Notes under the pieces: generated by a model
What the model saw: only the letters and a program-made list of their open reading frames with translations
What the model was told of the DNA's origin: nothing
Database searches by the model: none
Shown here: positions 1 through 47,318 of the stretch, piece after piece
Position numbering within the stretch: position 1 is the first letter of the stretch
Layout of the letters: the number at the start of each line of letters is the position of its first letter
Program-made: the position numbers and the translations under genes
IMG/VR virus record: IMGVR_UViG_2675903417_000001
Location: 1 to 47,318 of that record
From: a virus
Taxonomy: Duplodnaviria > Heunggongvirae > Uroviricota > Caudoviricetes
Direction: 5' to 3' (one strand)
DNA: 47,318 nt

Positions 1-281
1 CTTTACCTGCCACGGATCGGACAGGTTGAGAATATGAGCGTAGAGGGACTTTTCGTCCATGGCGGTGACCTCTGGCGATTAAATACACCATTATCATGCC
101 TTCAGCCACCACAACAAGGGAAGACCCTTTTATATACAGTAGTTTTAAAGTAGATTCAGATCAAGATGGCTAGGCCTATCAATGGAGCGACCATGAGATT
201 TAGCAGTTTGCGAACGCCGCTCCTCCCTCAAGCGAAACCACCGTGATATATTTACGCCACACACACTATAAGGATCTTAAG

Positions 282-1463
282 ATGAAAGTTGCTGTTTTGA
301 TGATGCAAAAGGATGAGTACCGGCTTCTTGAGCCATGGATACTGCATCATGCTGAGCTTTTTGGCCTTGAAAATTTATACGTCTACGATAACGGGTCGGC
401 AGATGAGCGATGCCTTAACGTTCTGAAGGAATATTCGGGAAAAGGGATGAATGTCGTTTATGACAGAAGCACCTTTGATGATTTCAATACCAGACATATC
501 TACTTCGTAGACAAATACGAAGAATTAAAGAATTCTCATGGCTATGATTTTATGATGCCACTTGATTGTGATGAGTTTGTTGGCGTTGAGTTTTCAAAAG
601 GCAAGGTGTCACTATCAAAAAATGATGTGTCGAATGAATTATCAAAATATATAGAAACCGATGCTACATTTAAAATTAAATATACATATGGCAACCACCC
701 GCTTAACCCAAAAGAATTTGTGCTAAGACCTAAACCTGAGAAAGTGTTCTTTCCTAAATCAAGAATAACTGCTCTGGGGAATGGTTTCCATCGCGGTGAA
801 GTTGAGTCAGGACAACAGGTTGATACTGATATCATTTACCTTCACTTCCATCATAAAAACTATGATGACTATATCGCCAGCGCCCGTAATAAACTGGAAG
901 GTCTTGTTGACGTTAATGATATTGAGGCTCTGAAGGCATTCAAAGGGGCGGGTCACCATTTAGTTAAAAAGTTCCTGATGACTCAGACCGAGTATTACGA
1001 TATGCATGCGGCTTCAAAGTCTATCAACCCGTCTAAGTTCTTTGTTATGGATGGCGTTTATGAATACCTGAAGGGTATAGGGCTGGATCTGGAGCAAACA
1101 TTAACTGTTGAACATGATGAAAGTCTAATAACATGGCATGGTTATGTAGACAAGGTGAGAGAAGATGATGGGTCATGCGTCTTCACGGGGTGGTGCTCTC
1201 CAAGCCTGAACGTTAATCAAGAGTTTTTTTTCCTGCGAGTAGGTCATGAAATACTCCCAGGATTCCTGGAGGGGAAAATACAGCGCTCAGATGTCGTAGC
1301 TAAATTCCCTGATTACAATCTCCAGTGTGGTTTCTCTGTAAGATTCTACGGGGTAACAAAGGGCTCTTTGCAGCGCAATGAGTGGGAGTTTCACGTTTCT
1401 GCTGGTCACAAAGGTACTGGCTCAAAGCTAAACAGAAAGAAAAACGAATCATACTTCCAGTAA
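282..1463 (+). CDS. putative glycosyltransferase (GT-A fold, GT2-like)
   Basis: ORF 243-1463 (GTG at 243); likely ATG at 282 with AAGGA 7 nt upstream. N-terminal 'VAVLMMQKDEYRLLEPWILHHAELFGLENLYVYDNGSAD' and DxD-like 'DCDEF' resemble GT2-like glycosyltransferases; visibly AT-rich; convergent with tailspike. Confidence 0.5.
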   Translation: MKVAVLMMQKDEYRLLEPWILHHAELFGLENLYVYDNGSADERCLNVLKEYSGKGMNVVYDRSTFDDFNTRHIYFVDKYEELKNSHGYDFMMPLDCDEFVGVEFSKGKVSLSKNDVSNELSKYIETDATFKIKYTYGNHPLNPKEFVLRPKPEKVFFPKSRITALGNGFHRGEVESGQQVDTDIIYLHFHHKNYDDYIASARNKLEGLVDVNDIEALKAFKGAGHHLVKKFLMTQTEYYDMHAASKSINPSKFFVMDGVYEYLKGIGLDLEQTLTVEHDESLITWHGYVDKVREDDGSCVFTGWCSPSLNVNQEFFFLRVGHEILPGFLEGKIQRSDVVAKFPDYNLQCGFSVRFYGVTKGSLQRNEWEFHVSAGHKGTGSKLNRKKNESYFQ

Positions 1464-1466
1464 AAG

Positions 1467-1493
1467 AAGGCGGGAAATCCCGCCTTTTACTTT
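1467..1493 (+). terminator. intrinsic terminator between convergent genes (possibly bidirectional)
   Basis: Hairpin AAGGCGGG-AAAT-CCCGCCTT followed by T-rich tract, 4 nt after the stop at 1463. Confidence 0.5.
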
Positions 1494-1607
1494 CTCAACC
1501 TTATAGCATCGAATGCTTCCCGTTAGCAGTCAATTGTCGCATAGGGCAGTTCTAATTTCGCATAATTATAACACTGCTCGAAGATATTAGGGCCATTCAG
1601 ATCGTAA

Positions 1608-1892
1608 TCACACTCCGTTGCCAACAACCTCCGCATTTGGTTCAACTGCATCGAACGCAATACACGCGGCGGCATATAGTGCGTCTATTGCAGACAATGG
1701 AAACATCGATAATGCGCAGGAATCACGAAACTCGTTCAGATCAGGCTTATTCCCATAGACTTTAACGGCAGTATTTGGTTTAAGATAAAAACCAGCGCTC
1801 CACCCGTTACCGCGCACTTCAACAATGGCAATGCTGTTAATTCCTTTAACCAATACACCGTCAAATTTGAAAGCACCGCTTGCTGTTTTCAT
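1608..1892 (-). CDS. hypothetical protein (accessory gene downstream of tailspike)
   Basis: ORF 1608-1931; probable start at internal ATG 1892 with GGAGA upstream; no recognisable motif. Confidence 0.35.
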   Translation of the reverse strand: MKTASGAFKFDGVLVKGINSIAIVEVRGNGWSAGFYLKPNTAVKVYGNKPDLNEFRDSCALSMFPLSAIDALYAAACIAFDAVEPNAEVVGNGV

Positions 1893-1893
1893 T

Positions 1894-2079
1894 TTAATCA
1901 TTCTCCGTAACAGTTTTATTGTGAGCAGCATTTAGTGCTCGCTGGAGTGGCTGGTCATTTTCGCGATCTAATTCTGCCTGCAATGCGTTCATAGCCACTG
2001 TAAAGGCAGGAACTTCCTGCCCGGTTAAATTAACTCTCAGCATGAACTGCATGATATTTTGAATAGTTTGCTTATCCAT
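1894..2079 (-). CDS. hypothetical protein (61 aa)
   Basis: ORF starting 12 nt after tailspike stop with AGGA upstream; no recognisable domain. Confidence 0.35.
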   Translation of the reverse strand: MDKQTIQNIMQFMLRVNLTGQEVPAFTVAMNALQAELDRENDQPLQRALNAAHNKTVTEND

Positions 2080-2091
2080 TTTATTGTCCTG

Positions 2092-3546
2092 TTAAGTTAA
2101 ACCAATTAATCCATGCCCGGTCGAAGCATGTAAGTCCTGAATTAATGCTGCAACTACCTTTGCTAAATCTTCGTGAGTTATTGTTCCAGAGTTAAATGCT
2201 GCTCGGGATACGGTGCCGGTTGGCGAACCCCATCCCGTTCTCCTCTCTGAAATAACTTGATTGCCATTAAGTCGTATTCTTAAGTTGGTGAAATTAGCCC
2301 AGTTCTCAGTCCTGTTGAAACTCAAATATGTTGTATTTGCCGGGCCCGTTCCTACCGTAATTCGTTGATTGTCGCCCAACAAAATAGCGCAATTGTTACT
2401 GAACCCGGATTCAGTTAACGAAAGTCCGACGCGGAAGTTGCCGCTTCTGAAACGAATTCCGTTCGCTGCGTTTGATAAAATGGAACCCTCAAGGCGCATA
2501 TACTCGCCATTGCCCACAACAGTGGTGACTTCCGTCGGTGCGACGATAGAGTCACCCCTGAACAACATGCCGGTCCAGATGAAACCGTTTGGCGCATTTA
2601 AGCCCCTGCCAATGTTGATCATGTGGGTTATGCGATTGCTACCGTCAGTGGTAGTGCATACCAGCCCCCTGGTGTTCCCTACATTCTCAGCGCCAACCAT
2701 CCACCCAGCGTCCACACTGCATCCATTATTCATGTTGAATTCATGGATAATTGCGGATTTTGCGCCAGTGTTTAATCCTCCTGACCCAGCAGGGCCAGAT
2801 ACAGCGCCGTAAGACCATCCCCCCCACACTTCTGCATCCGCATGTCTGGCTTCTCCCCGAAAATGCCCTCCTACTAACTGGCCTGTGCCGCCATTATGAC
2901 GAACGGCAGATGTCACTGCGGCGCCGTATGCTGATCCTCCTTGTTTCTCGAGATATCCGTAAAAGCAACCCTGTTCCCAGCGAGCTACGCCATCATCACG
3001 CGTGGCGTTGGATTTCTTTTCCACCCATAACACTGGATCCGGAGTATCAGTTAGCGGAATGGAAAATCTTTGGCGCATGGCGTTCGTATATTGAATTGAG
3101 CCGGTATTGTAAATATTCACGCCGCCTGCATCGGCTCCAGACCAGCCAGTGCCCCCATATAAATTGTTCAGTCCATCTCCAGCGGGGCCAGCCAGGATCA
3201 ATCGCAACTGGTCAGGGTCATATTTGAGTACATTCGGGAAATAATGTTGCCGAGCTCCGAAGGAGTCCAAGACCTCCATTGAATGTCCTTGCACGGTTAC
3301 AAATTTTGAAACCTTCCCGTTATATACCGGGTAACCAGCAGCGTTAATGATGATTGGTTGCGAAACAGGAACGTGAGAACCGTCTTCATTCTCTACATAA
3401 ACCTGAATCTGGTTTTCAGGATTTACCGGGTCAGTGTCAATTTTACCGATATAAATTTTGCCATTGGCTACGGCTTTAAAAGAACGAGCCATAGTGAAGA
3501 GTTGCGAAGGCATGCTTACCACAACATTTGCGGTGGTATCTGACAT
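2092..3546 (-). CDS. tailspike protein with P22 gp9-type head-binding domain and divergent receptor-binding domain
   Basis: ORF 2092-3678; real start most likely Met45 (ATG 3546, GGAG 7 nt upstream). N-terminal ~115 aa ('TANVVVS...[39 protein letters not shown]...VLKYDPDQ') match the P22 tailspike head-binding domain as I recall it; the rest is divergent. Confidence 0.85.
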
Positions 3547-3667
3547 TTCATTGCTCCAGACGAATGATATGATGCAACCATGATGTGATTGCATACCGAA
3601 ATGGTACTGTTGAGTATTTATCCAGTAGGTTACGATGCCATTCCACCCAACTGGTGAGGCATCAAGG
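3547..3667. promoter_or_regulatory. divergent promoter/operator region between tailspike and mnt (immI-like)
   Basis: 121-bp intergenic region between divergent starts; palindrome CACC-CAACT-GGTG at 3644-3656 is a candidate Mnt operator. Confidence 0.4.
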
Positions 3668-3928
3668 ATGTACAGCAAATACGACGAGGCGCAGTTTCAC
3701 TTGAGACTTCCGCATGAACTCCACGCGAAAATTAAGCAGCGTGCGAAGATGAATAACAGGTCGCTGAACTCAGAGATAATTGCAGCGATTGAAGAATCAT
3801 TGGCTAAACAAAGCTCTGCATCTGTTTACATTGACGATGCAGAGCGTATGGCAGAACAACAATCTGATATGGTTAAGAAAATTGTCTTTGATACGCTCAA
3901 AGAGCTATATAAAAAAGACAGCAGCTAA
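3668..3928 (+). CDS. mnt: Mnt repressor (ribbon-helix-helix)
   Basis: From Met12 of ORF 3635-3928 the protein aligns by eye with P22 Mnt; C-terminal '[28 protein letters not shown]' is near-identical to the Mnt C-terminus as recalled. Confidence 0.85.
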
Positions 3929-8903: not shown

Positions 8904-9604
8904 CAGTCAATCAGCCCATGTAATCTAAGTGCCGTTTCAAGCGCCAGAATACGCTGCCGCGACTGCTGCAAACCTGTAGCGAGAGCTGCGACTTCGGATT
9001 GTGTGTACGTAGTGCCGACCGTGTATGACTGGTTAGCGTTGAATGAGCCAAGAAGAGGTGTACCTGTGGCTGCAGTCCATCCGGTATTTCTTGCTCCAAT
9101 AACCTGAATTCCATCAACTGAATATGATGTTTTTACATCCAGCGGTGACGCAAGAGACTGCGATTCTGTTACGGTTTTCGATACGTAATCACTCTTAATG
9201 CCAGATACATCGCTTTCTACGCCATCCAGTCTTTGGTCAACAGTGACCAGATGCGCCTGAATATCGATAACCTCATCCAGCAAGTAATCAACATCGCTAC
9301 GTAGTACGACTATCTTCCCTTCGGCGGTTGTTAACCTGACCTCAAGGAGATTTATCGCTTTTGTGTTTGCGGTGATTCTTGCATCGTGATCTGCCAGCTC
9401 GACGTCCTGTTCATCGTTTTTCACCTGAGCATCGTAAGCGCCCTGACCAGCCTGATTTGCCTTCCCGGCAATTGCGCCAACATCAGCACCCTGATTTATG
9501 ACATACAGCAGGTAAGACTGGCTGAATATATTGCGTGGCAAAATTGAAGCATCAAGGCGCGTAGCCTGAACCGCGACAGGATTATTCAGTGATGAATCAA
9601 CCAT
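8903..9604 (-). CDS. tail needle protein (P22 gp26-like)
   Basis: 233-aa ORF; '[69 protein letters not shown]' and C-terminal '...LRLHGLID' match P22 gp26 as recalled. Confidence 0.85.
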
Positions 9605-22163: not shown

Positions 22164-22348
22164 CGTCTTCCCCTCTTGCCCTGTTTGACCATCAGGACGC
22201 CGTTAACTATTACATGACGCTCGCCTTTGCTGTCTCGGTTGTACTTGAGCACTGTTCCTCTTGCGCAGGAAAGCATCCTTGCCACTTTAGTCTGATTGCC
22301 TCGTGTCTGGATAAGAAGCTCTGGTATCGTTTGAATTGTGGCGTTCAT
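22160..22348 (-). CDS. ninH: NinH-like protein
   Basis: 62-aa ORF '...GNQTKVARMLSCARGTVLKYNRD...' resembling lambda NinH; position just upstream of Q. Confidence 0.55.
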   Translation of the reverse strand: MNATIQTIPELLIQTRGNQTKVARMLSCARGTVLKYNRDSKGERHVIVNGVLMVKQGKRGRR

Positions 22349-22707
22349 ACGTTCTCCAGTTCGGTGATTTTTATTCCAAGCCTTCCGCCTGGTACTTTCA
22401 CACCACGAATTACGCGAATGTCATCGAATTGCTCGTCGTCTTCCGCAAATCCGGCGTGGATAAGTGAGTCGAGTAAACCTTTCAGGATGTTATCGAGGTC
22501 GCGGCGGCGGGAGTCTGGAACGTCTGCGATTACTTTGATGCGGAGTCGTGATTTGGTGAAAATGTCTAACTTGAGTTGGCGGATGATTTTCTGAACGTCT
22601 TTTCGGTATTTCTGGCCTTTATCGCTGATGTAGTATTGGCTTCCCCGTCTTCGCCAGTAGGTATTCACCGATGGCGGGTACGGAAGCACAAACTGATATT
22701 CGTTCAT
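22345..22707 (-). CDS. rusA: Holliday-junction resolvase RusA
   Basis: 120-aa ORF; 'PYPPSVNTYWRRRG...DSRRRDLDNILKGLLDSLIHAGF' RusA signature. Confidence 0.85.
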   Translation of the reverse strand: MNEYQFVLPYPPSVNTYWRRRGSQYYISDKGQKYRKDVQKIIRQLKLDIFTKSRLRIKVIADVPDSRRRDLDNILKGLLDSLIHAGFAEDDEQFDDIRVIRGVKVPGGRLGIKITELENV

Positions 22708-22994
22708 GACTTAATCTTCCCCTCCTTCAGCAGTATCGCCTGCGTCCTGATCACGCCTTCGAGGTGGTAAAGTCTGGCGTCTTTGTTGTCGAGATTATGG
22801 GTGCGTCGGTCGATTTCATCGTGACACGCGCTACAAGCCCATGCGCCGATCAGGTCGTCAGGCTTCATTCCCGTTCCGCAAATTCCAGCCATCCGGTAAT
22901 GTGCCAGAACTGTAGTTTCAGGATTGCCATTGCATACGCCGTAAATACGTACCTGGCATTCTCTGCCGCGTGCTTCTTTGCGTAGATTAGCCAT
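22704..22994 (-). CDS. DUF1364-family protein (YbcO-like, Cys-rich)
   Basis: 96-aa ORF immediately upstream of rusA as in DLP12 ybcO-rusA; Cys cluster 'CQVRIYGVC...CSACH'. Confidence 0.55.
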   Translation of the reverse strand: MANLRKEARGRECQVRIYGVCNGNPETTVLAHYRMAGICGTGMKPDDLIGAWACSACHDEIDRRTHNLDNKDARLYHLEGVIRTQAILLKEGKIKS

Positions 22995-23716
22995 TAAGCA
23001 GCCTCCCCGGTTGCTTTCAGCATTCCGTTATCGAGCAGCTTTCTGGTCAGCCACTGTTGACCACGCCCGGTGATTTTTGTGGTGAACGATATCTGTATTC
23101 CGTGATTTGTGTTGACCGCTGTTTCTTTCACTGTGAAATAGCCGCGATCCATATATTCCTGCATTGGCACATTGCGCCGGGAACCTGAAGCAATAAGGAT
23201 TTTGTGATCGCGCATCCATGCAAACAGTTTGTTTGGACCAATACCAACAACCTTTGCATAGTTTCCAATCAAAATTCCGCTGGCCTCGCCAACTCGATCG
23301 GCAAACTCAACTTTAGGTGCGGCAATTGCGAGCTGGTTTTCCAGTTGCATTTTCTGCTCAGCAAGATCAGCAGCAAGGCGCAACGCTTCCGGTAACGTTT
23401 TGGGGATATTAACCGCAGTTTCTTCAAGCTCTCGCCAACGGTCAACAAGACGAGCGGTGAATTCCGGAGACAACTGGGCTACAACGACAATACTGTCTCG
23501 CTTTCCTTGTTCGCCTTCGAATACATACACACAAAAACTTTGATTTAAGCCTAACCCATTGATTCTTCCACAATCCTCAATTTGAGGAAGCCGGATAACA
23601 CCATTTTTAGCCAGCGTTTCGATGGTACGTTTCACATTGTCATGACGCTTACCAACCAACTCAGCGATTTCAATGCTTGTCATTTTGATGGCATTGCCAT
23701 TTATTAACTCATTCAT
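22994..23716 (-). CDS. phage antirepressor-like protein (Rha-like N-terminus + KilAC-like C-terminus)
   Basis: 240-aa ORF; N-terminal 'MTSIEIAELVGKRHDNVKRTIETL'; C-terminal region typical of KilAC/Ant domains. Confidence 0.65.
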   Translation of the reverse strand: MNELINGNAIKMTSIEIAELVGKRHDNVKRTIETLAKNGVIRLPQIEDCGRINGLGLNQSFCVYVFEGEQGKRDSIVVVAQLSPEFTARLVDRWRELEETAVNIPKTLPEALRLAADLAEQKMQLENQLAIAAPKVEFADRVGEASGILIGNYAKVVGIGPNKLFAWMRDHKILIASGSRRNVPMQEYMDRGYFTVKETAVNTNHGIQISFTTKITGRGQQWLTRKLLDNGMLKATGEAA

Positions 23717-23885
23717 CGTCTTCTTCCTCGTACATTGAGCTATTCGGATCGCTCATCAGTTCTGCGCAGCAATCGGAGCACACGTGAACTTCCAGCACAT
23801 GCAGCTTCTGACCGCAGTTAGCGCACGTTAAAGCTCGCTCGACGCTTTCTTTCTGGTATTGGAGGGATTGGGATGGGCTAAGCAT
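23709..23885 (-). CDS. small zinc-ribbon protein
   Basis: ORF 23709-23942; likely start at internal ATG 23885; 'CANCGQKLHVLEVHVCSDCC'. Confidence 0.35.
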   Translation of the reverse strand: MLSPSQSLQYQKESVERALTCANCGQKLHVLEVHVCSDCCAELMSDPNSSMYEEEDDE

Positions 23886-37512: not shown

Positions 37513-37713
37513 ATGCAACACGAACTACAACCTGATTCACTGGTTGATTTGAAATTCATCATGGCTGATACTGGCTTTGGTAAAACCTTCATCTACGACC
37601 GGATTAAGTCCGGCGACCTGCCAAAAGCCAAAGTTATCCACGGGCGAGCAAGATGGTTATATCGTGACCATTGTGAATTCAAAAATAAGCTCTTAAGCCG
37701 CGCCAATGGGTAA
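37513..37713 (+). CDS. AlpA/Xis-like HTH DNA-binding protein
   Basis: 66-aa ORF; 'LKFIMADTGFGKTFIYDRIKSGDLPKAKVIHGRARWLYRDHCEF' fits the AlpA/excisionase pattern; lies between the two tRNA-like fragments. Confidence 0.55.
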   Translation: MQHELQPDSLVDLKFIMADTGFGKTFIYDRIKSGDLPKAKVIHGRARWLYRDHCEFKNKLLSRANG

Positions 37714-37786: not shown

Positions 37787-37799
37787 CTGCAGGGGACAC
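37787..37799 (+). other. tRNA 3'-acceptor-like fragment (CTGCAGGGGACAC); candidate attL core of the integrase element
   Basis: About 175 bp upstream of the integrase start; part of an 8-bp inverted repeat TCCCCTGC...GCAGGGGA (37763-37796); matches the 3' end of argW as recalled. Confidence 0.35.
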
Positions 37800-37972
37800 T
37801 TTAAAGACCTTTCTCTACATTTCACTTCATTACATAACCACTTAAAAAACAGTAAGTTATCACCGAATCGGCCTGATTTTCATTTCAGTTAATTTCATGA
37901 CATTACAACCTCGTGATGGTATAAGTGATGGTATTCCCCAGTTCGATATGCAGATACCATCAATTTACCAAA

Positions 37973-39259
37973 ATGAGTACAGATATGGCCATTAATGTGC
38001 TTTCCCCCAAACAGATAGAAAACGCCAAGCCGAAGACCAATGATTACAAACTTACCGATGGAGGGAGTTTGTATCTACTGGTACGAAAGACTGGTGGAAA
38101 ATACTGGCGTATGAATTATCGTTTTGATGGAAAACAAGTGACATTGGCATTAGGGGTCTACCCAGATGTCTCACTTGCAACAGCGCGGAAACGGCGTGAT
38201 GAAGCCAGGCAACTACTAACCGATGGTCGTGATCCTCGCGAAGCAAAGAAACCCAAAAAGGAAGACCCAATTTCCCCCACGTTCGAGAGTGTTGCCAGAG
38301 AGTGGCATAGTGGAACGATGGGGCATCCTGAGTGGAAAGAGATCACCCGTAAAAAAATTCTCCGAGAAATGGAAAACCACCTCTTTCCTGCCATCGGTTC
38401 AAAGCCTATCGATACGCTCAAAACCCGTGACTTGATGCCGATGCTGGTTGAGATGACTGAGAAAGGAATTGGTGCCACAACGAGCCGGGTAAAAACCACT
38501 ATGACGAGCATCTTCCGTTATGCAGTGCAACGTGGAATTGTCGATTACAACCCTGCCCACGATCTAAAAGGTGCAATTACGGCCCCCAAAGTACGACATC
38601 GCCCCGCACTACCTCTCGAACGTTTACCTGAACTGTTAGCGAAAACGAGAAGTTACACGGGAAGACCATTGACTCGCCTAGCAGTTCTCTTTTCCCTGCA
38701 CACTTTTGTGCGATCCAGCGAACTACGACATGCCAGATGGGAGGAGATCGACATTGAAAATGGGCTATGGACGATACCAGGACAACGTGAAGAGATCGCA
38801 GGGGTTAAATTCTCAGATCGGGGTGCAAAGATGGGGGCTGCTCATTATGTCCCGCTATCTAGTCAGGCTATCGGGGTACTGGAGGATATAAGGAAAATCA
38901 GTGGTGAATATCTGCTGGTTTTCCCCGGTGACAGCAACCCATATAAACCGATGAGCGAAAACACAGTTAATAAAGCACTGCGAACGATGGGTTACGACAC
39001 TCAAACTGATGTATGCTTGCATGGGTTCAGGGCGATGGCCTGCTCTGCACTGACCGAATCAGGACTCTGGTCACGCGATGCAGTTGAACGGCAGATGAGT
39101 CACCAAGAAAGAAACGAAGTGCGGGCAGCATATGTGCATCTTGCGCAGCACATGCAGGAACGCCGCAGAATGATGCAATGGTGGTCTAATTATCTGGAAC
39201 TAAATAAGGACGAATTTCATGCTCCTTATGACTTATCAGGTATTAACATTATCAATTAA
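37973..39259 (+). CDS. int: P4-type tyrosine integrase
   Basis: ORF 37925-39259 (GTG); likely start ATG 37973 or 37985. N-terminal 'AKPKTNDYKLTDGGSLYLLVRKTGGKYWRMNYRFDGKQVTLALGVYPDVSLATARKRRDEAR' is typical of the P4 integrase arm-binding domain; C-terminal catalytic region with 'HGFRAM' and 'RAAYVHL'. Confidence 0.85.
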   Translation: MSTDMAINVLSPKQIENAKPKTNDYKLTDGGSLYLLVRKTGGKYWRMNYRFDGKQVTLALGVYPDVSLATARKRRDEARQLLTDGRDPREAKKPKKEDPISPTFESVAREWHSGTMGHPEWKEITRKKILREMENHLFPAIGSKPIDTLKTRDLMPMLVEMTEKGIGATTSRVKTTMTSIFRYAVQRGIVDYNPAHDLKGAITAPKVRHRPALPLERLPELLAKTRSYTGRPLTRLAVLFSLHTFVRSSELRHARWEEIDIENGLWTIPGQREEIAGVKFSDRGAKMGAAHYVPLSSQAIGVLEDIRKISGEYLLVFPGDSNPYKPMSENTVNKALRTMGYDTQTDVCLHGFRAMACSALTESGLWSRDAVERQMSHQERNEVRAAYVHLAQHMQERRRMMQWWSNYLELNKDEFHAPYDLSGINIIN

Positions 39260-39289
39260 ATACTCTTATAATTTAAAACAGAGGTCATA

Positions 39290-40171
39290 ATGCAGCATTC
39301 AACAGAGAATGAAACTATATTCTTAGGAAATCTATGGATTGACAAAAAAATACCACCATTAGAATATTGTTCATTTGAACGCGCTTCAAGACTATTAGAA
39401 TGCGAGATTGATGATTTATTACACCTATACGAAATAGGCGCTTTTAATATCGCATTCAAGGCGGATGGACTTGCAGTTAGATTTAATGTTAATTTCCTCA
39501 ATAAAAATCAGAAAATGGAAATTGACTTAATTCATCCCGTATTAACTAATCAATCACTAGAGATGGAGTTTTCAACAATATGGTATGACCTTAAAGATGA
39601 TTCCTTTGAACATTTTGAAAATGGGCTTCAAATTATAGGATTTGCCTGTGGTATTTGGTACGCCGATGATATGATAAGTGACATAAAAAATGGATTAGCT
39701 ATAGATCCAGATTATGAATTCAGGCTTAAACCGGTAAAAATACGAGATAATGTTTTGATGGCAACGGCCTCATATGAAGGAAATAAGGTCATTGATATTC
39801 CATTTGAAGATCTTCTTATCATGCGAAGAGATTTAGAGTTAATATGGAAATCAGTAAAAACTGGAATTCCTATGCCAAGTTTACTTACGAAAAGAATTTC
39901 ATCTGAACCTAAAATCCCCAAGCGATTAAATAACACTGCTGAGCATCATGCAAAAAATAGGGAGGGGTTATTAAATGCAGCCATATATATTTTAGCAAAA
40001 TACCCAAGCGAATGTCGTGGTGAAAGAAAAGAGATAAGTCCTGAAAAGTGGACTAACGCCATAATTAAACATTTAGGAGAGCTACCTCCAATATTTATCA
40101 CTAATGAACAAGAAATCTTAAGAAAATTACGATTAGCGGTTAATCATGCGGGGTTAAAACAAAAGGGGTAG
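39290..40171 (+). CDS. hypothetical AT-rich cargo protein (293 aa)
   Basis: ORF starting 31 nt after int stop; visibly low GC relative to int and downstream satellite genes; no motif recognised. Confidence 0.6.
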   Translation: MQHSTENETIFLGNLWIDKKIPPLEYCSFERASRLLECEIDDLLHLYEIGAFNIAFKADGLAVRFNVNFLNKNQKMEIDLIHPVLTNQSLEMEFSTIWYDLKDDSFEHFENGLQIIGFACGIWYADDMISDIKNGLAIDPDYEFRLKPVKIRDNVLMATASYEGNKVIDIPFEDLLIMRRDLELIWKSVKTGIPMPSLLTKRISSEPKIPKRLNNTAEHHAKNREGLLNAAIYILAKYPSECRGERKEISPEKWTNAIIKHLGELPPIFITNEQEILRKLRLAVNHAGLKQKG

Positions 40172-40273
40172 ACTGAAACAATCTACAGGTAGAGTTGATT
40201 ACACTACCTTCACAGCATTTTGATATCCCCATAGTATCTGCCGTGTTCATTACATAACACGGCAGGTAATTTC

Positions 40274-40489
40274 ATGACATTAAAAACTTATCCTATCACT
40301 GGACATGCCCGCCCACGAGCTACTGCTGACTTTTTGCAAATAAGTACGGTTACTCTCTGGCGCTGGGAAAAGAACAATCCTGAATTTCCCAAATCTATAC
40401 GCATTTCAAAACGGGTATCTGTTTACGATGCACAAGAAATTAGGCAGTGGGTTAAAGCTCAATCAGCAGGATTGGAGGAAGTAGTGTAA
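40274..40489 (+). CDS. alpA: AlpA-family transcriptional regulator
   Basis: 71-aa ORF; 'DFLQISTVTLWRWEKNNPEFPKSIRISKRVSVYDAQEIRQWV' fits AlpA HTH pattern. Confidence 0.7.
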   Translation: MTLKTYPITGHARPRATADFLQISTVTLWRWEKNNPEFPKSIRISKRVSVYDAQEIRQWVKAQSAGLEEVV

Positions 40490-40538
40490 TGACAATATTA
40501 ACAAAGCTGGGGAGAAAAAAGCCTCCCCAACGTATTAA

Positions 40539-40733
40539 TCAATTCTTTGGTTCTAAACCTCGGCTTTGTAACTCTTTGCGTAGAATGCGCTTGATCCAAG
40601 CCGCTAGCGATTCATCGCCATCCTGCTGTTGTGCTTGTTCCATCAGTTCACGCAGTTCAGGGTCAAGTCGGAACTGGAATGGCGGATTCCCACGTCTTTC
40701 ATTTTTGTGTGTTGACACGTCAATTACACCCAT
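40539..40733 (-). CDS. possible ribbon-helix-helix regulator
   Basis: 64-aa ORF; 'PPFQFRLDPELRELMEQ' resembles an RHH strand-helix; divergent from icd-like gene. Confidence 0.4.
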   Translation of the reverse strand: MGVIDVSTHKNERRGNPPFQFRLDPELRELMEQAQQQDGDESLAAWIKRILRKELQSRGLEPKN

Positions 40734-40765
40734 TGTAATGTATTTATGTGTAATGACACATTACA
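40712..40765. promoter_or_regulatory. palindrome-rich divergent control region
   Basis: Perfect palindrome TTGACACGTCAA (40712-40723) and inverted repeat GTGTAATG-ACA-CATTACAC (40747-40765), plus repeated GTAATG motifs. Confidence 0.35.
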
Positions 40766-40849
40766 CACAGAAAAACAAAATAGCAACGCCCCGGAGTGTT
40801 TGCAGCAGCACCGAGGCGTCTGACCAGCACGTTATATGAGGTAACGAAG

Positions 40850-41026
40850 ATGGCTAAACAGAAGTGTACCTGGTTATTTGCGGCGATCAACCGCAGTCAA
40901 CGTAATGCCCGTCCGGTGATGTTAAGGATCATCGCAGATAACGAACGATCAGCGCGGCGCAGACTTGCCCCGGACTATGTACTGAGCTTTGCCGGGCGCA
41001 TTCCCTGCGGAGGTGAACATGCGTAA
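40850..41026 (+). CDS. Icd-like small protein
   Basis: ORF 40796-41026; likely start ATG 40850 with GAGG 8 nt upstream; 'WLFAAINRSQRNARPVMLRIIADNERSARRRLAPDYVLSFAGRIP' resembles Icd-like proteins of P4-like elements as recalled. Confidence 0.45.
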   Translation: MAKQKCTWLFAAINRSQRNARPVMLRIIADNERSARRRLAPDYVLSFAGRIPCGGEHA

Positions 41027-41378
41027 TTATCCGCACCCCGGCGAACGCTGGCAGCATGAACGTGGCTGGACGGTCACGATTATCCGATTAATAGAAGCCT
41101 CGCCCTCTGTGGCGCTGGTTAATCCTGAATTCAGCTGTGAAGTGCTGATACGTCATGACAGCGACAACCAGCTATCCTCCTGCCCTCTGGCATGGTTTGA
41201 ACAGCGGTATACGCGCCTGTTTGATGTACCGCTCTTTAAGCCTGCACCAGCTCCTGCAGGCGGTAGTGGTTCCGGCCCGCTGACACTGCATCCGTCTGTG
41301 CTATTTATCCGCTGGCGGGAGCGTAGCATATGGCGCTCTGCTGAGCCTGACGACGGTCACTATTCAAAGTTTCTCTGA
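41019..41378 (+). CDS. hypothetical protein
   Basis: ORF 40989-41378; likely start ATG 41019 with GGAGG 5 nt upstream, overlapping upstream stop. Confidence 0.4.
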   Translation: MRNYPHPGERWQHERGWTVTIIRLIEASPSVALVNPEFSCEVLIRHDSDNQLSSCPLAWFEQRYTRLFDVPLFKPAPAPAGGSGSGPLTLHPSVLFIRWRERSIWRSAEPDDGHYSKFL

Positions 41379-41409
41379 CAAAATACCGCTGAAAACGGAG
41401 TAATCCACG

Positions 41410-41694
41410 ATGAATATTTCAAACGGGCACAACGGTGCTCAGGGCCACACTTTGCCTGAAAAACACAATACCGGTGCTTTTGCCTATGGGTTGTCAGAGG
41501 ACAGTTTCGGAAAGCTGACCCGCGCAAGAAATGCCTGCGACATGCTCCAGCTTCTCTTTTCTGAATACCCGTCTCAGGCCGGAGCACTGGACGCTGGCTG
41601 TGCGCATGGTGTCGCCGCGCTGATGGAGTACCTGCTGGCAGATTTGACGGATATTGCACACAGCTGCGCACTGATTGAAGGAGGTGCCAGATGA
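41410..41694 (+). CDS. hypothetical protein
   Basis: 94-aa ORF upstream of primase; overlaps next start. Confidence 0.4.
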   Translation: MNISNGHNGAQGHTLPEKHNTGAFAYGLSEDSFGKLTRARNACDMLQLLFSEYPSQAGALDAGCAHGVAALMEYLLADLTDIAHSCALIEGGAR

Positions 41695-42074
41695 ACCAGC
41701 CGCAGGTTTCCATTTTCCCGGCAGAAATGACCACCGCGCTTTACCGGCGGGCTATTGCTTCAGCATGGCGGCAGAAAATGCTGAACGAAACTGGCAGTGA
41801 TCAGTATGGTCCGCACAGCCTGACGGTGGAGCGTATTGAAATGGCCATTGCGCTGCATATCGAGTGCGTACTGATTAACGAGTACGGCGAAGTGCAGGGC
41901 GCCGCTGCCGCGCTGGCACTGCTGACTGACATGCTGGAGCCGTCACTGCTGACCGCGCCGCCGGTACTGACCGCGCGCGGCTGTGAAGTGATGGCGGAGA
42001 TGTACCGCACGCTTCCGGCGGCCTTTGATGACTTCTGCAGTACCGGTGTGACGTTGTATGAGGGGGAAGTATGA
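41691..42074 (+). CDS. hypothetical protein
   Basis: 127-aa ORF coupled to primase gene (ATGA overlap). Confidence 0.4.
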   Translation: MNQPQVSIFPAEMTTALYRRAIASAWRQKMLNETGSDQYGPHSLTVERIEMAIALHIECVLINEYGEVQGAAAALALLTDMLEPSLLTAPPVLTARGCEVMAEMYRTLPAAFDDFCSTGVTLYEGEV

Positions 42075-44743
42075 CAATACAGACGGTTACGCAGATTTCA
42101 GCCGCCGCACGGGGGAAATGGCCCGTTATTCTGCAGATGCTGCGTATTGATGTACCTGAAAACGGCAGGCACGGTCCCTGCCCGAAATGTGGGGGCAAGG
42201 ATCGTTTTCGCCTTGATGACCTTGACGGGCGCGGGACGTGGATCTGCAGCCAGTGTGGCAATGGTGACGGTCTGGATCTGGTTAAGCTCGTAACCGGTTA
42301 CAGCGTCAGAAAGGCTGCGCAGGAGGTGGCGCAGGTGCTTAATGTGCCGGATGTGCAGGAACTGCCTGTTAAGCCTGCCAGACAAAAAGCCCCTAAACGC
42401 GACATGGGTCTTACCGTGGCGGCGCTGATGAAAGAGAGCCACACGGGAGAAAGCGCCTATCTGACAGGAAAAGGGTTCGCCGGATACCCGGCCTCTCTGA
42501 CCGGAAGCGTGCAGCATATCAGCGGTAAGGATTTTCCTGCCGGTTCCCTGCTGTTACCACTCACGACCAACACCGGAGCCGTGACCGGTGCACAGCTTAT
42601 CGCCCCGACGGGTGAAAAAAGCATACTGCCCGGCAGCACGATGAAAGGCGCGTTTGTGTCGCTCAGCCCGTTACCGTCTGAACCACCGGTACAGGTGGTG
42701 ATTACCGAAGGTTACGCTACGGCGCTGACGGTAAGCCAGCTCACTGCCGGATGCGTAGTGGCTGCCATATCTGCGGGCAACCTGCCCAATGTGGCGCAGT
42801 CGCTGCGGGCACGCTGGCCTGAGGTAAAAATTATCATCGCCGGTGATAACGATTTTCAGGACGGGGGTGAGAATCCCGGCAGAGCCTTTGCTGAACGGGC
42901 GGCAAAAGCTGTTGGCGGCTGGATGACGCTGCCACCAGGAGAGATTAAGGCTGACTGGAATGACTTTCATCGGGAGCACGGTATTACCCGTGCCCGTGAA
43001 GCCTTTCGCAACGGTCTGGTACTGTGCGGGGAAGGCCGCACGCAACTGCCGCACGGGTTCCGTCTTACCCAGGAATATCTCTGGTATGAAAAGCAGGTAC
43101 AGCGCAACGGTGAGACGGAGATCCAGAACGTCAAAATATGCAGCCCGCTGCGCGTGACGGCAATCACCTGCGATGCCGATGGCGGTAACTTCGGACGACT
43201 GCTGGAATGGGAAGATACGTGGGGTGAGTGTCGCCGCTGGGCGATGCCGATGGAAATGCTGAGCGGCAGTGGTGAGGAACTGCGCCGGGTACTGCTGGTT
43301 AACGGGCTGTCTTATATCAGCACCACCGGTGAGGCACGCGCACGCCTGATGGAATATATCTCACTGTGTAAACCGGAACGCCGCGTGACCTGCGTCAGTC
43401 GTACTGGCTGGCATGGTCAGGTTTACGTCCTGCAGGATGAGGTCAGCGGTGAAGGTGCAGAGGGTGTCATTCTCCAGACCACTTCCGTGCAGGGGCGTGA
43501 TTTCCGCGTGTCGGGCACAACAGAGGAATGGCGGGAGCATGTATCCCGCTACTGTACCGGCAACTCCCGCGTGGCATTTGCTGTCAGCCTGGCCTTTGCT
43601 GCACCACTGTTACGGCTGGTTGGTATGGACGGCGGCGGCTACCACCTCAAAGGGGAATCGACAGACGGTAAGACCACCACCATGAAAGCGGCAACCTCCG
43701 TCTGCGGCGGGCCTGACTACTGGCAGACATGGCGGGCCACCGGCAACGCGCTGGAGGGATGCGCCAGCCGCCGCAACGATGCTGCCATGATGCTTGATGA
43801 GATCCGGGAAGTTGACGGACGCGAGGCAGGCAATATCGCCTACATGCTGGCAAACGGTCAGGGCAAGGGCCGTGCCGGTACGGACGGTGAGCTGCGTACC
43901 CGTAAGCAGTGGCGCCTGTTGTTCTTTTCAACTGGCGAGTTGTCTCTGACCGAACATGCGGCAAAGGCCGGTGAGCGTACTTTTGCCGGGATGGAAGTCA
44001 GGATGATCCAGATCCCCAGCGATTCCGGGAAGTTTGGCGTTTTTGAGGAGCTGCACGGCTTCGACAGCGGCAAGGCTCTGGCAGAGCATCTTGAATGGGC
44101 CACGTCCTGCTACTACGGTTCGCCGTTCCGGGAGTGGCTGAAAGCACTGACCGCTGATCTTAACGGACTAACGGCACAGGCAAAATCGCTGATGAAGGAA
44201 TATGCTGCCGCCCTGACTCCTAAAGATGCAGGCAATCAGGTGGGCCGGGCTGTGAACCGCTTTGCACTGGTGGCGATGGCAGGTGAACTGGCAACCCGTC
44301 TGGGTATCACCGGCTGGCCTGAGGGTGAAGCACTGCGGGCAACCCGCGTCTGCCTGAACGCATGGCTGAAAGATCGCGGGCACACCGCCAATCAGGAAGA
44401 TATCGCCGCACTGGAGCAGGTTCGCAGTTTCTTTACCGCGAATCAGTACAGCCGCTTTGCAGACTGGTATGACGAGCGCAACCGCCCCGGCAATATGGTG
44501 GGCTGGCGCAGGGTGGAGAAAGGCAGTACCGCGCAGGGCACGGAAGCTGTCACTACGTTCTATGTCATGCCGTCCGGCTGGAAAGAAATCTGCAGGGGAT
44601 TTGACCCGCGCAAGGTGGCGCGTCTGTGCGTAGATCGTGGATACCTGCTGCCCTCCACTGATGGCAAACTCCAGACAACCATTCGCCCGCCAGAGATGAA
44701 TCCCCGCAGGCTCTATGTCTTCAACAGCGAGGTGCCGGGTTAA
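42071..44743 (+). CDS. primase/helicase-type replication protein (zinc-ribbon + TOPRIM + C-terminal NTPase; P4 alpha-like)
   Basis: 890-aa ORF; zinc ribbon 'CPKCGGKDRFRLDDLDGRGTWICSQCG', TOPRIM 'VVITEGYATALTV...IIAGDND', Walker A-like 'GESTDGKTT'. Confidence 0.85.
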   Translation: MTIQTVTQISAAARGKWPVILQMLRIDVPENGRHGPCPKCGGKDRFRLDDLDGRGTWICSQCGNGDGLDLVKLVTGYSVRKAAQEVAQVLNVPDVQELPVKPARQKAPKRDMGLTVAALMKESHTGESAYLTGKGFAGYPASLTGSVQHISGKDFPAGSLLLPLTTNTGAVTGAQLIAPTGEKSILPGSTMKGAFVSLSPLPSEPPVQVVITEGYATALTVSQLTAGCVVAAISAGNLPNVAQSLRARWPEVKIIIAGDNDFQDGGENPGRAFAERAAKAVGGWMTLPPGEIKADWNDFHREHGITRAREAFRNGLVLCGEGRTQLPHGFRLTQEYLWYEKQVQRNGETEIQNVKICSPLRVTAITCDADGGNFGRLLEWEDTWGECRRWAMPMEMLSGSGEELRRVLLVNGLSYISTTGEARARLMEYISLCKPERRVTCVSRTGWHGQVYVLQDEVSGEGAEGVILQTTSVQGRDFRVSGTTEEWREHVSRYCTGNSRVAFAVSLAFAAPLLRLVGMDGGGYHLKGESTDGKTTTMKAATSVCGGPDYWQTWRATGNALEGCASRRNDAAMMLDEIREVDGREAGNIAYMLANGQGKGRAGTDGELRTRKQWRLLFFSTGELSLTEHAAKAGERTFAGMEVRMIQIPSDSGKFGVFEELHGFDSGKALAEHLEWATSCYYGSPFREWLKALTADLNGLTAQAKSLMKEYAAALTPKDAGNQVGRAVNRFALVAMAGELATRLGITGWPEGEALRATRVCLNAWLKDRGHTANQEDIAALEQVRSFFTANQYSRFADWYDERNRPGNMVGWRRVEKGSTAQGTEAVTTFYVMPSGWKEICRGFDPRKVARLCVDRGYLLPSTDGKLQTTIRPPEMNPRRLYVFNSEVPG

Positions 44744-44777
44744 GGCTTTGCGTGAGTCTTATTTATTAAGGGTAACA

Positions 44778-44965
44778 GGTGAAACAGGTGGAACAACCGT
44801 ATTTTACAGGGCTGAACCTGATCCACCTTCTGAAATAGTGAGGTGGAACAGATGTAACGCCAGCCAATCCGCTGTTCCACCTTGTTACCCGCGATGTTCC
44901 ACCGGTGCAGTGTATATAAATGCCTTATAAAACAAAGCAGTAACACATGTTTCACCTGTTCCACC
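44778..44965. repeat. iteron cluster (TGTT[C/T]CACC x7, both orientations); candidate satellite ori
   Basis: GGTGAAACA 44778, GGTGGAACA 44787 and 44842, TGTTCCACC 44873, 44895 and 44957, TGTTTCACC 44948; downstream of primase; resembles P4 type I iterons (TGTTCACC) as recalled. Confidence 0.55.
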
Positions 44966-45053
44966 GCATCAGGGACATAAAGCAGACTGAAACAGAGGGT
45001 ATTTTTATCTGGCTGGCTTTCATAGCCACGTCTGAATAACCGCAAGCGCCCGT

Positions 45054-45109
45054 TGTGCCAGCCACCACACACTGAGCACCGATAGTGTGCTTGTGTCAGC
45101 CACGACACA
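45054..45109 (+). promoter_or_regulatory. candidate Ogr/Delta-dependent late promoter upstream of sid
   Basis: Two TGT-N12-ACA dyads (45054-45071 and 45092-45109) 35-90 bp upstream of the sid ATG. Confidence 0.45.
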
Positions 45110-45143
45110 ATTGACGTAACGAACCAACCCGACAGGAGAAGTC

Positions 45144-45887
45144 ATGAACAACACCGCAGTGAATAACAACCTTTCCACTTTTCCGGCTGTAACGCAGCGG
45201 GCACTGGAAACCATGAACACAGCCAGAAACGCATGGCTTGAAGCACGTCGTCAGCAGAAAGCGGCAGCGGATAATATTGCGACAATCCGCCAGCGTCGCG
45301 CTGAAATGGAAGCCACGACGAACACACTGAATGAGGAGTGGCGCACGCTGTTTCGTGAAAGTCAGGGCGTGGTCTCAAAGGAAATGAAAAAACTGCGCAC
45401 GGAAATTGCGCTGGGACGAGAAACGCTTGAGGATTTTGATGAGCTGCTGGCGGCTCAGGAAAGCGAAAATGCACTTTTGCCGCAGAAAGCTGCGGAATTA
45501 GCCGGAAAGTATATCCACGCGCATAACATTCTTGTGGATATTCGCGCAAAACAAATCTGGGAAGATTTTATGCAGTCGCATGGAAAAGCGCTTATTCAGA
45601 CGCTGAGCCTGCTTAAATCCACAATGGGCCGGGAAGCCAGTGCCGTTGTGGGTGTGGTGAATTCAGTTAATGACCCGGACACAGTGCTGAAAGACTTTAT
45701 TCATAAACATATCACCAGACCGGCTCTGGCTAACGATGCGATGCCTGAACAGGACCCGGTGTTTAAACTGGCGGGAGTTGCCCCGGATTATGCGGCGCGT
45801 CTGGATTTCAGTAATCAACTCTCTCCGGCAGCTATGCATAAAATAAAGGTTCGTCAGGAACTTGCTGAGAAGGAGAAAGCAGTATGA
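45144..45887 (+). CDS. sid: Sid-like capsid size-determination protein
   Basis: 247-aa helical ORF immediately upstream of psu; size and position as P4 Sid; sequence not independently recognised. Confidence 0.5.
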   Translation: MNNTAVNNNLSTFPAVTQRALETMNTARNAWLEARRQQKAAADNIATIRQRRAEMEATTNTLNEEWRTLFRESQGVVSKEMKKLRTEIALGRETLEDFDELLAAQESENALLPQKAAELAGKYIHAHNILVDIRAKQIWEDFMQSHGKALIQTLSLLKSTMGREASAVVGVVNSVNDPDTVLKDFIHKHITRPALANDAMPEQDPVFKLAGVAPDYAARLDFSNQLSPAAMHKIKVRQELAEKEKAV

Positions 45888-46435
45888 CGGCCCGAGGCAC
45901 ACCTGACCAGGCACTTACCAGTTTTCGGAATGCCCGTATTCTGTGGGCCGGACATAGTGAGAGCCGAAAAGCCGTTGAACAACAGATAACATCTCTCCTC
46001 GCTGCCACAGAAAAACCAGCAGATTATGCCCGACAGCTCGAATTACTGCGGGAACGTCTGGATGTGCTGAAATGGCAAATTAACTGTGCTGCTCGGGAAT
46101 GCATTTACTCGCAGCATTTATTGATGGAGGCCTGCACAGAAGCTGCTCTCAGCAATTTTATGCAGGCGAATGGGGCAGCCCTGACATCTGCACTGGCTCC
46201 GTTCCTGAAGGGGCGCGGAGGGGTTGACGTTGCGTCCCGTATATTACGCAGTGCTCTGGTTCGCCAGCTGGCAATAACACCGCCTGAAATTGCCGGGGAT
46301 TATCGTGAGATCCTGGATGAATCCGGTTTGATGCCAGACCCCGGGATGATTCGTGATTGCCAGGGCTCTTACACCCCGGCACAACATCTGCGTTTTCAGC
46401 AACGCCTGAATGACATTAACGATATACAGGAGTGA
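45884..46435 (+). CDS. psu: Psu (polarity suppression / capsid decoration) protein
   Basis: 183-aa ORF; 'LKWQINCAARECI', 'NFMQANGAALTSALAPFL', 'YTPAQHLRF' align by eye with P4 Psu as recalled. Confidence 0.7.
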   Translation: MTARGTPDQALTSFRNARILWAGHSESRKAVEQQITSLLAATEKPADYARQLELLRERLDVLKWQINCAARECIYSQHLLMEACTEAALSNFMQANGAALTSALAPFLKGRGGVDVASRILRSALVRQLAITPPEIAGDYREILDESGLMPDPGMIRDCQGSYTPAQHLRFQQRLNDINDIQE

Positions 46436-46440
46436 TATTA

Positions 46441-46713
46441 ATGGCACTTAAATGTCCGGAATGCGGTACAGTTGCACACGCCAGAACAGCAGCCTATGAA
46501 GCTCCGTCAGTTAAACGCTCGTGGTATCAGTGCCAGAATCTGGAATGTTCCTGCACATTTACGGCACTGGAGAGTGTGGATAAGATAATCATGAAACCCC
46601 GGCGCAATGAACAGGAACCAGACAAATCACAAACCCCGGTAAAACAACAGCAAACGCTCAATCGCTATGGCTCCGCGTCAAAACTGTCAAGCCGTCAGCA
46701 GATTCCTGTCTAA
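46441..46713 (+). CDS. delta: Ogr/Delta-family zinc-finger late transcription activator
   Basis: ORF 46432-46713; from ATG 46441: 'MALKCPECGTVAHARTAAYEAPSVKRSWYQCQNLECSCTF' is the Ogr/Delta C2C2 pattern. Confidence 0.75.
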   Translation: MALKCPECGTVAHARTAAYEAPSVKRSWYQCQNLECSCTFTALESVDKIIMKPRRNEQEPDKSQTPVKQQQTLNRYGSASKLSSRQQIPV

Positions 46714-46733
46714 TTAGAAAAAAACGCCCACGT

Positions 46734-46760
46734 AATCCCGGTCGAGTACCGGGATTTTTA
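46734..46760 (+). terminator. intrinsic terminator after delta
   Basis: Hairpin AATCCCGGT-CGAGT-ACCGGGATT followed by TTTT. Confidence 0.5.
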
Positions 46761-46787
46761 ACACCTTTTCCCTGGCTGGCCTGAGAG

Positions 46788-46900
46788 CGCATGAGTGCAT
46801 GTCTATAGCGCATGAAAACGCATGAACCTTATGCACCATTTTTGACGAGAAAGCCCTTGTGTGGTGGCTTCTGAGACGATTTATGAGGTGCATGAAAACC
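46788..46900. repeat. cluster of GCATGA(A) direct repeats
   Basis: GCGCATGAG, TGCATG, GCGCATGAAAAC, GCATGAACC, ATGCACC and GTGCATGAAAACC within ~115 bp of non-coding DNA. Confidence 0.3.
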
Positions 46901-47198
46901 AGTCTGTTAAGCGAAGCGGGCAGGCGTGCGGGGCTGTTCGCATCAACATAAAAATAACGGGCTGATATAGTTATAAAATCAAATGAACTCTTTTAGTACG
47001 ACATGGGTATGTGCGCCAGTAGCAACGTCAGCCCCCAAGCTTTCTATTGTTCTTTTCTGTTGTACCATCAATACGTACCGATTAGCTCCTAAGCATCAAT
47101 ATCAGTTTGAACGTATTGCTTTGAACTAATTTTTAGATGATTTTTTTCATTAAAAAATTATAATGTTGTAGATAAAAAGAGAATCTTATAGAGGCGTT

Positions 47199-47318
47199 AT
47201 GTCAAATAAAGTTGATGTTTTTTTGAGCCGAGTTAGCCATGTATCACAGTTTGTATTGGTGGCATTTGCTATTTTTGGATATTTTTATACAGTAAGACCA
47301 ATTTACCAAAAGGAACTT
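47199..47318 (+). CDS. 5' end of an AT-rich ORF running out of the window (hydrophobic N-terminus)
   Basis: ATG 47199 with GAGG upstream; 'MSNKVDVFLSRVSHVSQFVLVAFAIFGYFYTVRPIYQKEL' open to window end. Confidence 0.3.
   Translation, partial: MSNKVDVFLSRVSHVSQFVLVAFAIFGYFYTVRPIYQKEL

Follow-up and report, generated by a model that had tools for sequence, protein, structure and literature searches.

A P4-family phage satellite of variant layout adjoining an HK620-like prophage at argW

The closest described system to the element reported here is the phage satellite P4 (NC_001609). Read in the direction of its integrase gene, P4 is arranged as att, int, cII, (beta, gop), cos, then psu, delta and sid on the opposite strand, followed by ori, vis, cI, epsilon, orf151, orf106, alpha and att, with the late operon, cos and cargo placed between int and the early operon and on the opposite strand. 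Across catalogued P4-like elements the canonical core order is int, psu, delta, sid, alpA, epsilon, alpha, and among Types A and B 77% keep the P4 order, 20% have psu and delta swapped, 1.2% carry alpA after alpha and less than 1% are reversed (PMC8628076). A Type C variant 'lacking epsilon and alpha' is abundant and its possible defectiveness has been discussed (PMC8628076), while a distinctive Escherichia sub-family composed wholly of Type C members has been judged probably functional, with complementation of the missing functions uncertain (PMC8628076, PMC10085698). SatelliteFinder allows one or two components to be absent (Types B and C). Here we describe a relative of P4 at positions 37787-47318 of a 47,318-nucleotide stretch of DNA (IMG/VR virus record IMGVR_UViG_2675903417_000001), the whole of which is referred to below as the window. 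The element is an ordinary P4-family phage satellite with a variant layout. The window very probably holds most of an integrated satellite of approximately 11.6 kb, which would depend on a P2-family helper and which adjoins a phage through a shared argW attachment site.

Late operon, cis-acting sites and helper type

The late genes of the satellite lie on the plus strand and are homologous to sid, psu and delta of P4. Sid, which as an external scaffold determines the size of the capsid, is encoded at 45144..45887. The protein has 247 residues and is 24% identical to P4 Sid over 226 residues (E 1e-11, BLASTP), a better match than it makes to Psu; Pfam returns a weak Psu match. Its best match among solved structures is P4 Sid in the procapsid 7jw1 (E 6e-10, residues 12-230 against 5-222), and it belongs to phrog_6165 (E 9e-93), as does P4 Sid. 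Psu, which acts in polarity suppression and capsid decoration, follows at 45884..46435 and is recognised by PF07455 (E 1.5e-44), by phrog_6366 (E 3e-70) and by 30% identity to P4 Psu. Delta, the late-gene activator, occupies 46432..46713 (RefSeq start 46441), matches PF04606 (E 7e-16) and aligns with the first half of P4 Delta at 45% identity (BLASTP). Compared with P4, psu and delta are swapped, and Delta contains a single Ogr-type zinc finger where P4 Delta contains two Ogr domains. A preliminary description of the window, made from its sequence alone, had named sid, psu and delta, and these assignments survive alignment, whether by BLASTP to P4 or against PF07455, PF04606, 7jw1 and phrog_6165. 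In late operons of the same backbone from Enterobacter, Citrobacter, Pseudocitrobacter and Pantoea (L015-L020), delta comes directly after sid, and psu is absent after sid or a distant sid/psu-like gene lies after delta (L016, L018); psu content and position therefore vary in this backbone.

The sites that would govern late expression, replication and packaging of the element are also arranged as in P4. The motif TGT-N12-ACA is the binding site for Ogr and Delta in P2 and P4 late promoters. Two such boxes, at 45054-45071 and 45092-45109, define a Psid-type late promoter region (45054..45109, plus strand) and begin 90 and 52 nt ahead of the sid ATG. The spacing is identical in P4, where the Psid boxes start at 9493 and 9531 and the sid ATG lies at 9583, and by this geometry an Ogr/Delta-type late promoter is predicted upstream of sid. 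The presumed replication origin is an unstranded iteron cluster at 44778..44965, where seven copies of TGTTYCACC / GGTGRAACA are packed into 190 bp; the rest of the 47 kb window has a single one. The type-1 repeat of the P4 origin, TGTTCACC, likewise sits just upstream of Psid.

Downstream of delta is a P2-family cos (46889..46941, plus strand) that reads TGCATGAAAACC...AAGCGGGCA|GGCGTGCGGGGCTGTTCGC and whose 19-nt cohesive end would, by analogy with P4, be 46923-46941. It aligns with cos of P4, P2 and the Peduoviridae phages RE-2010, MLG42 and 500465-1, although blastn of the region against the P4 cos junction gives short seeds only and the homology is clear only in multiple alignments with Peduoviridae. 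In those Peduoviridae phages cos has gpA or dinI on one flank and the portal gene on the other. The same cos variant occurs in a P2-family prophage of E. coli Z1323PEC0014, where it is 92% identical over 49 nt, including an extra AAGYG and the CTG tail, and lies approximately 160 bp past the 3' end of the portal gene. That prophage also encodes a replication endonuclease, a terminase, a GPO scaffold and a P2-family capsid. As in P4-like satellites, the P2-family cos of the present element stands next to a variable cargo slot.

The cos, the predicted Ogr/Delta-type late promoter and the Sid, Psu and Delta homologues all point to a P2-family helper. Phages of the HK620/P22 type use headful packaging from a pac site. 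No terminase gene, small subunit included, and no packaging-redirection gene was found by Pfam or PHROGs in any satellite ORF, which, taken with a P2-type cos and set against headful pac phages, argues that the neighbouring phage is not the helper. The preliminary description had offered, as one of two options, that this satellite family has a different helper relationship. That option is not borne out, since the late module indicates a P2-family helper and the adjacency is explained by the shared argW site.

Early region and gene order

The int end of the element also resembles that of P4. A tyrosine integrase of 424 residues from the RefSeq start (37985..39259, plus strand; the ORF opens at a GTG at 37925) carries the Pfam domains Arm-DNA-bind_3, Phage_int_M and Phage_integrase and is 52% identical to P4 Int (E 1e-155, BLASTP), compared with 30% to HK620 IntS. 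Just ahead of its start, P' arm-type integrase sites span 37914..37962 (plus strand), with TGATGGTAT at 37914 and 37926, 12 bp apart, and an inverted ATACCATCA at 37954. There are no other copies of TGATGGTAT in the window, a second arm-repeat pair adjoins attR in relatives, and GGGGGCAT repeats occupy the same positions in P4. The satellite thus has a P4-type integrase beside a tRNA attachment site, the core lying at the 3' end of argW, as expected of P4-like satellites. Ownership of the integrase by the P22-like phage was suspected because the gene follows an excisionase gene, and was rejected: in an HK620-type prophage int lies at the end away from torI, the identity to IntS is low, and the integrase stays with the satellite where the phage is absent, being found in phage-free genomes and directly after argW in two of the copies examined (L001 and L004).

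Beyond int and a variable slot, the AlpA/Vis-type regulator and excisionase is encoded at 40274..40489 (plus strand; PF05930, E 1.6e-7, 31.6 bits against a cut-off of 21) and falls in phrog_66 ('excisionase and transcriptional regulator'), which is also matched by P4 Vis. Between alpA and the icd-like ORF lies the sole minus-strand gene of the satellite (40539..40733), whose 64-residue Arc-like product bears the RefSeq name YlcI/YnfO and falls in phrog_228 (Arc-like repressor, E 9e-6). In this lineage, in which a CI-type RNA was not detected, the protein may act as a repressor or in immunity. The following genes are all on the plus strand. The Icd-like protein (40850..41026; NF033153, E 2e-23) is 54% identical to the product of the P4 ORF annotated 'cI'. 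Two small ORFs of 119 and 94 residues (41019..41694; phrog_30862 and phrog_14861, function unknown) are conserved across species and occupy the position of P4 epsilon and orf151, although their PHROGs differ from that of P4 epsilon (phrog_10016, PF25738). A DUF5375 protein (41691..42074; PF17345) is the homologue of P4 orf106, with 40% identity and the same phrog_5991. The 890-residue replicase (42071..44743) joins a P4-alpha-like primase to a DUF927-type helicase (Zn_Ribbon_Prim, Toprim_3 and DUF927, the last at E 2e-90). The match to P4 alpha covers residues 5-316 at 38% identity (E 5e-48), and the remainder is unrelated to it (BLASTP), P4 alpha carrying D5_N, DUF5906 and Pox_D5 where the satellite replicase has DUF927.

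In full, the satellite reads att, int, orf293, alpA, ylcI on the opposite strand, the icd-like ORF, the two small ORFs, DUF5375 and replicase, then ori, Psid, sid, psu, delta, cos, cargo and att, the last two presumably lying beyond the window. The block of ori, Psid, late genes, cos and cargo is collinear with that of P4 but stands after the replicase and on the same strand, so that the cargo slot adjoins attR, unlike in P4. An uninterrupted series of plus-strand ORFs runs from 37925 to 46713, and the preliminary description was right that the genes it named are co-directional and ordered unlike those of P4. [quoted passage not shown] The element further differs from P4 in its location, at argW rather than leuX, and in having no homologue of epsilon or orf151. 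It resembles P4 in its probable size of 11.6 kb, the paired arm repeats with an inverted copy at the int start, the AlpA/Vis protein, the Icd-like ORF, orf106, the Zn-ribbon/Toprim primase, the TGTTCACC-like iterons, the Psid boxes, Sid, Psu and Delta, and a P2-type cos followed by cargo. Protein identities to P4 lie at 24-52%, with 54% for the Icd-like ORF.

Canonical-order P4-like satellites of E. coli, such as that in O157:H7 F8797 (L010), share the late module. Their sid-psu-delta-cos segment is 92.6% identical at the DNA level to that of the window, has the same psu-before-delta order and is likewise followed by cargo. However, their early operon is divergent from sid, their alpha is 73% identical to P4 alpha and their int lies beyond the cargo, as in P4. 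A shared late module combined with a different early region shows that modules are exchanged between layouts.

The argW junction and the distribution of the satellite

The att core CTGCAGGGGACAC lies at 37787..37799 (plus strand) and corresponds to the 3' end of the tRNA-Arg gene argW. It is the sole exact copy in the window, is identical to the argW end in satellite-only genomes, and marks a hybrid junction at which a phage attR is fused to the satellite attL. The argW core of KplE1, HK620 and Sf6 has been described as CTGCAGGGGACACCAT (PMC2951348), and CTGCAGGGGACAC accounts for nucleotides 1-13 of the 16-nt KplE1/HK620 core, which can be written CTGCAGGGGACAC(CAT). From torI to 37799 the window matches the HK620 attP arm; HK620 then reads CATTTATC where the window reads TTTAAAGACC. 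In phage-free E. coli genomes argW ends in TTCGATTCCTGCAGGGGACAC and is followed directly by the TTTAAAGACC of the satellite. The preliminary description placed the left limit of the element at 37787, which is the exact first base of the att core and the point at which homology to satellite-only E. coli genomes begins. Its right limit, 47318, does not stand: this is the mere edge of the window, relatives run approximately 2.1 kb further to attR, and the truncation of the element had been missed.

What the window contains is probably the left 9.5 kb of a satellite of approximately 11.6 kb. These 9,532 bp are 99.3% identical to the copy in an E. coli genome with the same tandem arrangement (L003). 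Core-to-core lengths in four relatives that are 98.8-99.8% identical to the window are 11,173, 11,415, 11,599 and 11,597 bp, compared with 11,624 bp in P4, and by this comparison approximately 2.1 kb of cargo and attR should lie past 47318. A tRNA scan of the window returned none, which places argW itself outside it. With up to 3 mismatches allowed, neither the window nor L001 yielded a second att core. The attR site lies beyond the window and is deleted by 1 nt relative to the tRNA, and it was located by k-mers. In relatives attR reads TTCGATTCCTGCAGGGACACCA and lies beyond the cargo, with arm repeats just before it. Copies outside the window at L001 15174, L002 17795, L003 24429 and L004 20598 all read CTGCAGGG-ACACCA, one G short of argW. 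The short G run is consistent with an attP that carries an imperfect copy of the tRNA end, with crossover in GGGACAC, and need not mean decay.

On the other side of the junction lies a prophage of the type that the preliminary description named, a P22-type podovirus in tandem with a P4-like satellite. The structural genes at 3.2-25 kb of the window are 95-97% identical to those of HK620, Sf6 and related Lederbergvirus podoviruses, and the P4 homologues described above complete the pair. The last prophage gene, which is not part of the satellite, encodes a TorI-type excisionase (37513..37713, plus strand) that is 100% identical to HK620 TorI. In KplE1, HK620 and Sf6, which integrate at argW, the int and torI genes bracket the prophage (PMC2951348), and the position of HK620 attP between int and torI places torI at one end of the prophage and IntS at the other. 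The neighbour carries the IntS-TorI module of KplE1, HK620, Sf6 and CUS-3, to judge from its TorI and attP arm, which are identical to those of HK620. This module is not that of the satellite, whose Int differs and uses other arm sites. Since both HK620-type phages and the satellite use the 3' end of argW, the adjacency reflects tandem integration at a common address and not a partnership between the two elements.

The frequency of the pairing was counted in 5426 complete E. coli genomes. Approximately 62 carry the argW satellite at no less than 80% of its length, most of them without an adjoining phage. The torI arm reaching the core was counted in 1467 genomes, and an exact match to the tandem junction, from torI arm through core to satellite arm, in 10. 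Tandem arrangements therefore account for 16% of argW satellites against a genome background of 27% for the torI arm, and the pairing is not enriched. The tandem L003 and solo L004 satellites are 99.9% identical over 11.6 kb, cargo included, which fits a recent insertion of the phage at the argW copy that the satellite had restored. The sid-psu-delta-cos stretch, taken with the replicase 3' end ahead of it, is found at a coverage of at least 80% in 305 of the 5426 genomes, the same backbone occurs at leuX with a different integrase (L011), and it is present at argW or thrW in Shigella flexneri, Enterobacter, Citrobacter, Pseudocitrobacter and Pantoea. P4-like elements adjoining large prophages have been noted previously (PMC8628076).

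The far end of the prophage shows features of its own. Window positions 1-148 match the transposase of the ISL3-like ISKox3 at 97-98%, and the window lacks the argW-proximal prophage end (IntS, attL and tRNA); the IS at the left edge may disrupt that end. A GT2 glycosyltransferase gene (243-1463, approximately 41% G+C) lies beside a gene for a 528-residue tailspike (2092-3678, minus strand) with a P22-type head-binding domain at its N-terminus. Coverage of window positions 1-3300 stays below 80% in every complete E. coli genome, the best reaching 76% at 85% identity, and the two genes may form an uncommon pair for O-antigen specificity and modification.

Life cycle, alternative readings and cargo

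Homology to P4 allows a life cycle to be proposed. Int and AlpA would carry out integration at, and excision from, the 3' end of argW, and the primase-helicase would replicate it from the iterons. With a P2-family (Peduoviridae) helper present, helper Ogr and satellite Delta would fire Psid, Sid would drive the helper capsid protein into small shells that Psu would decorate, and the helper terminase would cut the P2-type cos and package the genome of approximately 11.6 kb. An HK620/Sf6-like phage, with IntS/TorI targeting an overlapping core, would have entered the argW copy that the satellite had restored, and this insertion would have produced the hybrid junction of phage P arm, core and satellite P' arm. 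The homologies, the geometry of the cis-acting sites, the att sites and the distribution with and without the phage support this account, in which the activity of each step is proposed by analogy. Several points weigh against it. In the replicase, the helicase half departs from that of P4. Epsilon (Ash) was not found among the scanned satellite ORFs by BLASTP to P4 epsilon, by Pfam (PF25738) or by PHROGs (phrog_10016), so that derepression of a resident helper is unaccounted for, and an Rfam scan for a P4 CI or C4-type immunity RNA gave nothing at E <= 0.1. The completeness of the window copy is judged from its 99.3% identical relative, attR and the end of the element presumably lying beyond the window. 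In the tandem state attL retains only 13 bp of the approximately 21 bp of tRNA-derived sequence, and this shortened hybrid site might lower excision. More speculatively, the hybrid attL created by insertion of the HK620-like phage could alter or couple excision of the satellite.

The tandem could otherwise represent a functional partnership, the satellite having switched helper to exploit the adjacent HK620-like phage. Co-directional int, alpA and primase genes occur in Gram-negative phage-inducible chromosomal islands (PICIs), some of which use lambdoid helpers, and this resemblance, together with physical adjacency, a shared att core and the lack of an epsilon homologue for derepression of P2, would suit such a switch. 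It is nevertheless extremely improbable given a P2-family cos where HK620/P22-type phages package by the headful mechanism from pac, P2 Ogr/Delta boxes in Psid, no gene for a small terminase or for packaging redirection in the satellite, and only 10 tandem junctions against approximately 62 argW copies and 305 backbone genomes, with further copies at leuX and thrW. The same gene orientation raises the question of whether the element is instead a PICI-type island, or a PICI/P4 hybrid, that acquired a sid-psu-delta cassette. SatelliteFinder scores int, AlpA and primase as a Type C PICI (PMC10085698), and the O157:H7 canonical-order satellites share the sid-psu-delta-cos segment at 92.6% identity while their early region is different. 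Yet the early region of the window satellite itself holds P4 homologues (Int 52%, Icd-like 54%, orf106 40% and primase 38% identical), its attP arm layout and TGTTCACC-like iterons are as in P4, and the capsid-morphogenesis and packaging-redirection genes of PICIs were not found by Pfam or PHROGs, the hijack module consisting of sid, psu and delta. A PICI origin is accordingly judged very unlikely.

A further possibility is that the element is a grounded and decaying P4-like remnant, a cryptic island incapable of excision or transfer. Every gene is intact and uninterrupted, however, and a length of 11.2-11.6 kb is kept despite changes of cargo. At 98-99% identity the backbone recurs in unrelated strains, across several genera, at three tRNA sites and alongside differing integrases, which implies recent mobility. 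What speaks for decay is the absence of epsilon, the non-canonical replicase, attR copies in relatives that are one G short of the tRNA, a hybrid attL without the tRNA-side flank of the core, and the debate in the catalogue over the defectiveness of P4-like sets without epsilon and alpha (PMC8628076). The short G run is common to all attR copies, though, and would fit a sequence derived from attP, and the catalogue authors argue that clade-specific variants are functional (PMC10085698). We therefore consider a remnant unlikely and favour a mobile P4-family satellite with a P2-family helper.

Two positions in this satellite vary in content. The slot that adjoins cos begins at 46942 and runs to the window edge (46942..47318, plus strand, 32% G+C), an ORF that starts at 47199 running off the window. 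Satellite copies lose homology to one another at 46936 or 46941 and continue into strain-specific genes. Here L001 encodes a SEC-C/YecA-like protein, L002 a DzbB-like one and the leuX copy L011 retron St85, and L003 and L004 share an unannotated two-gene pair. The ORF at 47199 corresponds to the beginning of the cargo gene of L003. The L003 cargo (22242-23811) is a gene pair encoding 282 and 234 residues, with no match in PADLOC or Pfam. Sister copies use the same slot for retron St85, a DzbB-like protein or a SEC-C protein, which makes the L003-type pair a candidate for an unknown defence cassette. Cargo hotspots adjoining cos have been reported (PMC9122126). The second position lies between int and alpA, where orf293 (39290..40171, plus strand; 293 residues, 34% G+C) has no match in Pfam, PHROGs, PADLOC or NCBIfam. 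The leuX version has another gene in this slot (L011 4343-4981), which may be a second cargo position tied to the integrase module.

With no epsilon match and only the primase third of alpha recognisable, the satellite is like the Type C variants of the catalogue. We tentatively suggest that its lineage may be the all-Type-C Escherichia sub-family, a functional, reordered relative of P4 that would rely on incoming or self-inducing P2-family helpers, a possibility we hold with some reserve. If so, the sub-family would have swapped its helicase, shifted its defence-cargo slot to the attR end and dispensed with derepression of a resident helper. More generally, the locus documents a widespread P4-family layout (305 of 5426 complete E. 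coli genomes, and several further genera) in which late operon, cos and cargo follow a replicase with a DUF927 helicase. Searches for defence cargo 'between psu and int', or satellite limits set at alpha, would truncate or mis-score such elements. The presence of a P2-dependent satellite beside a P22-type phage reflects a shared tRNA site and cautions against inferring the helper of a satellite from adjacency.

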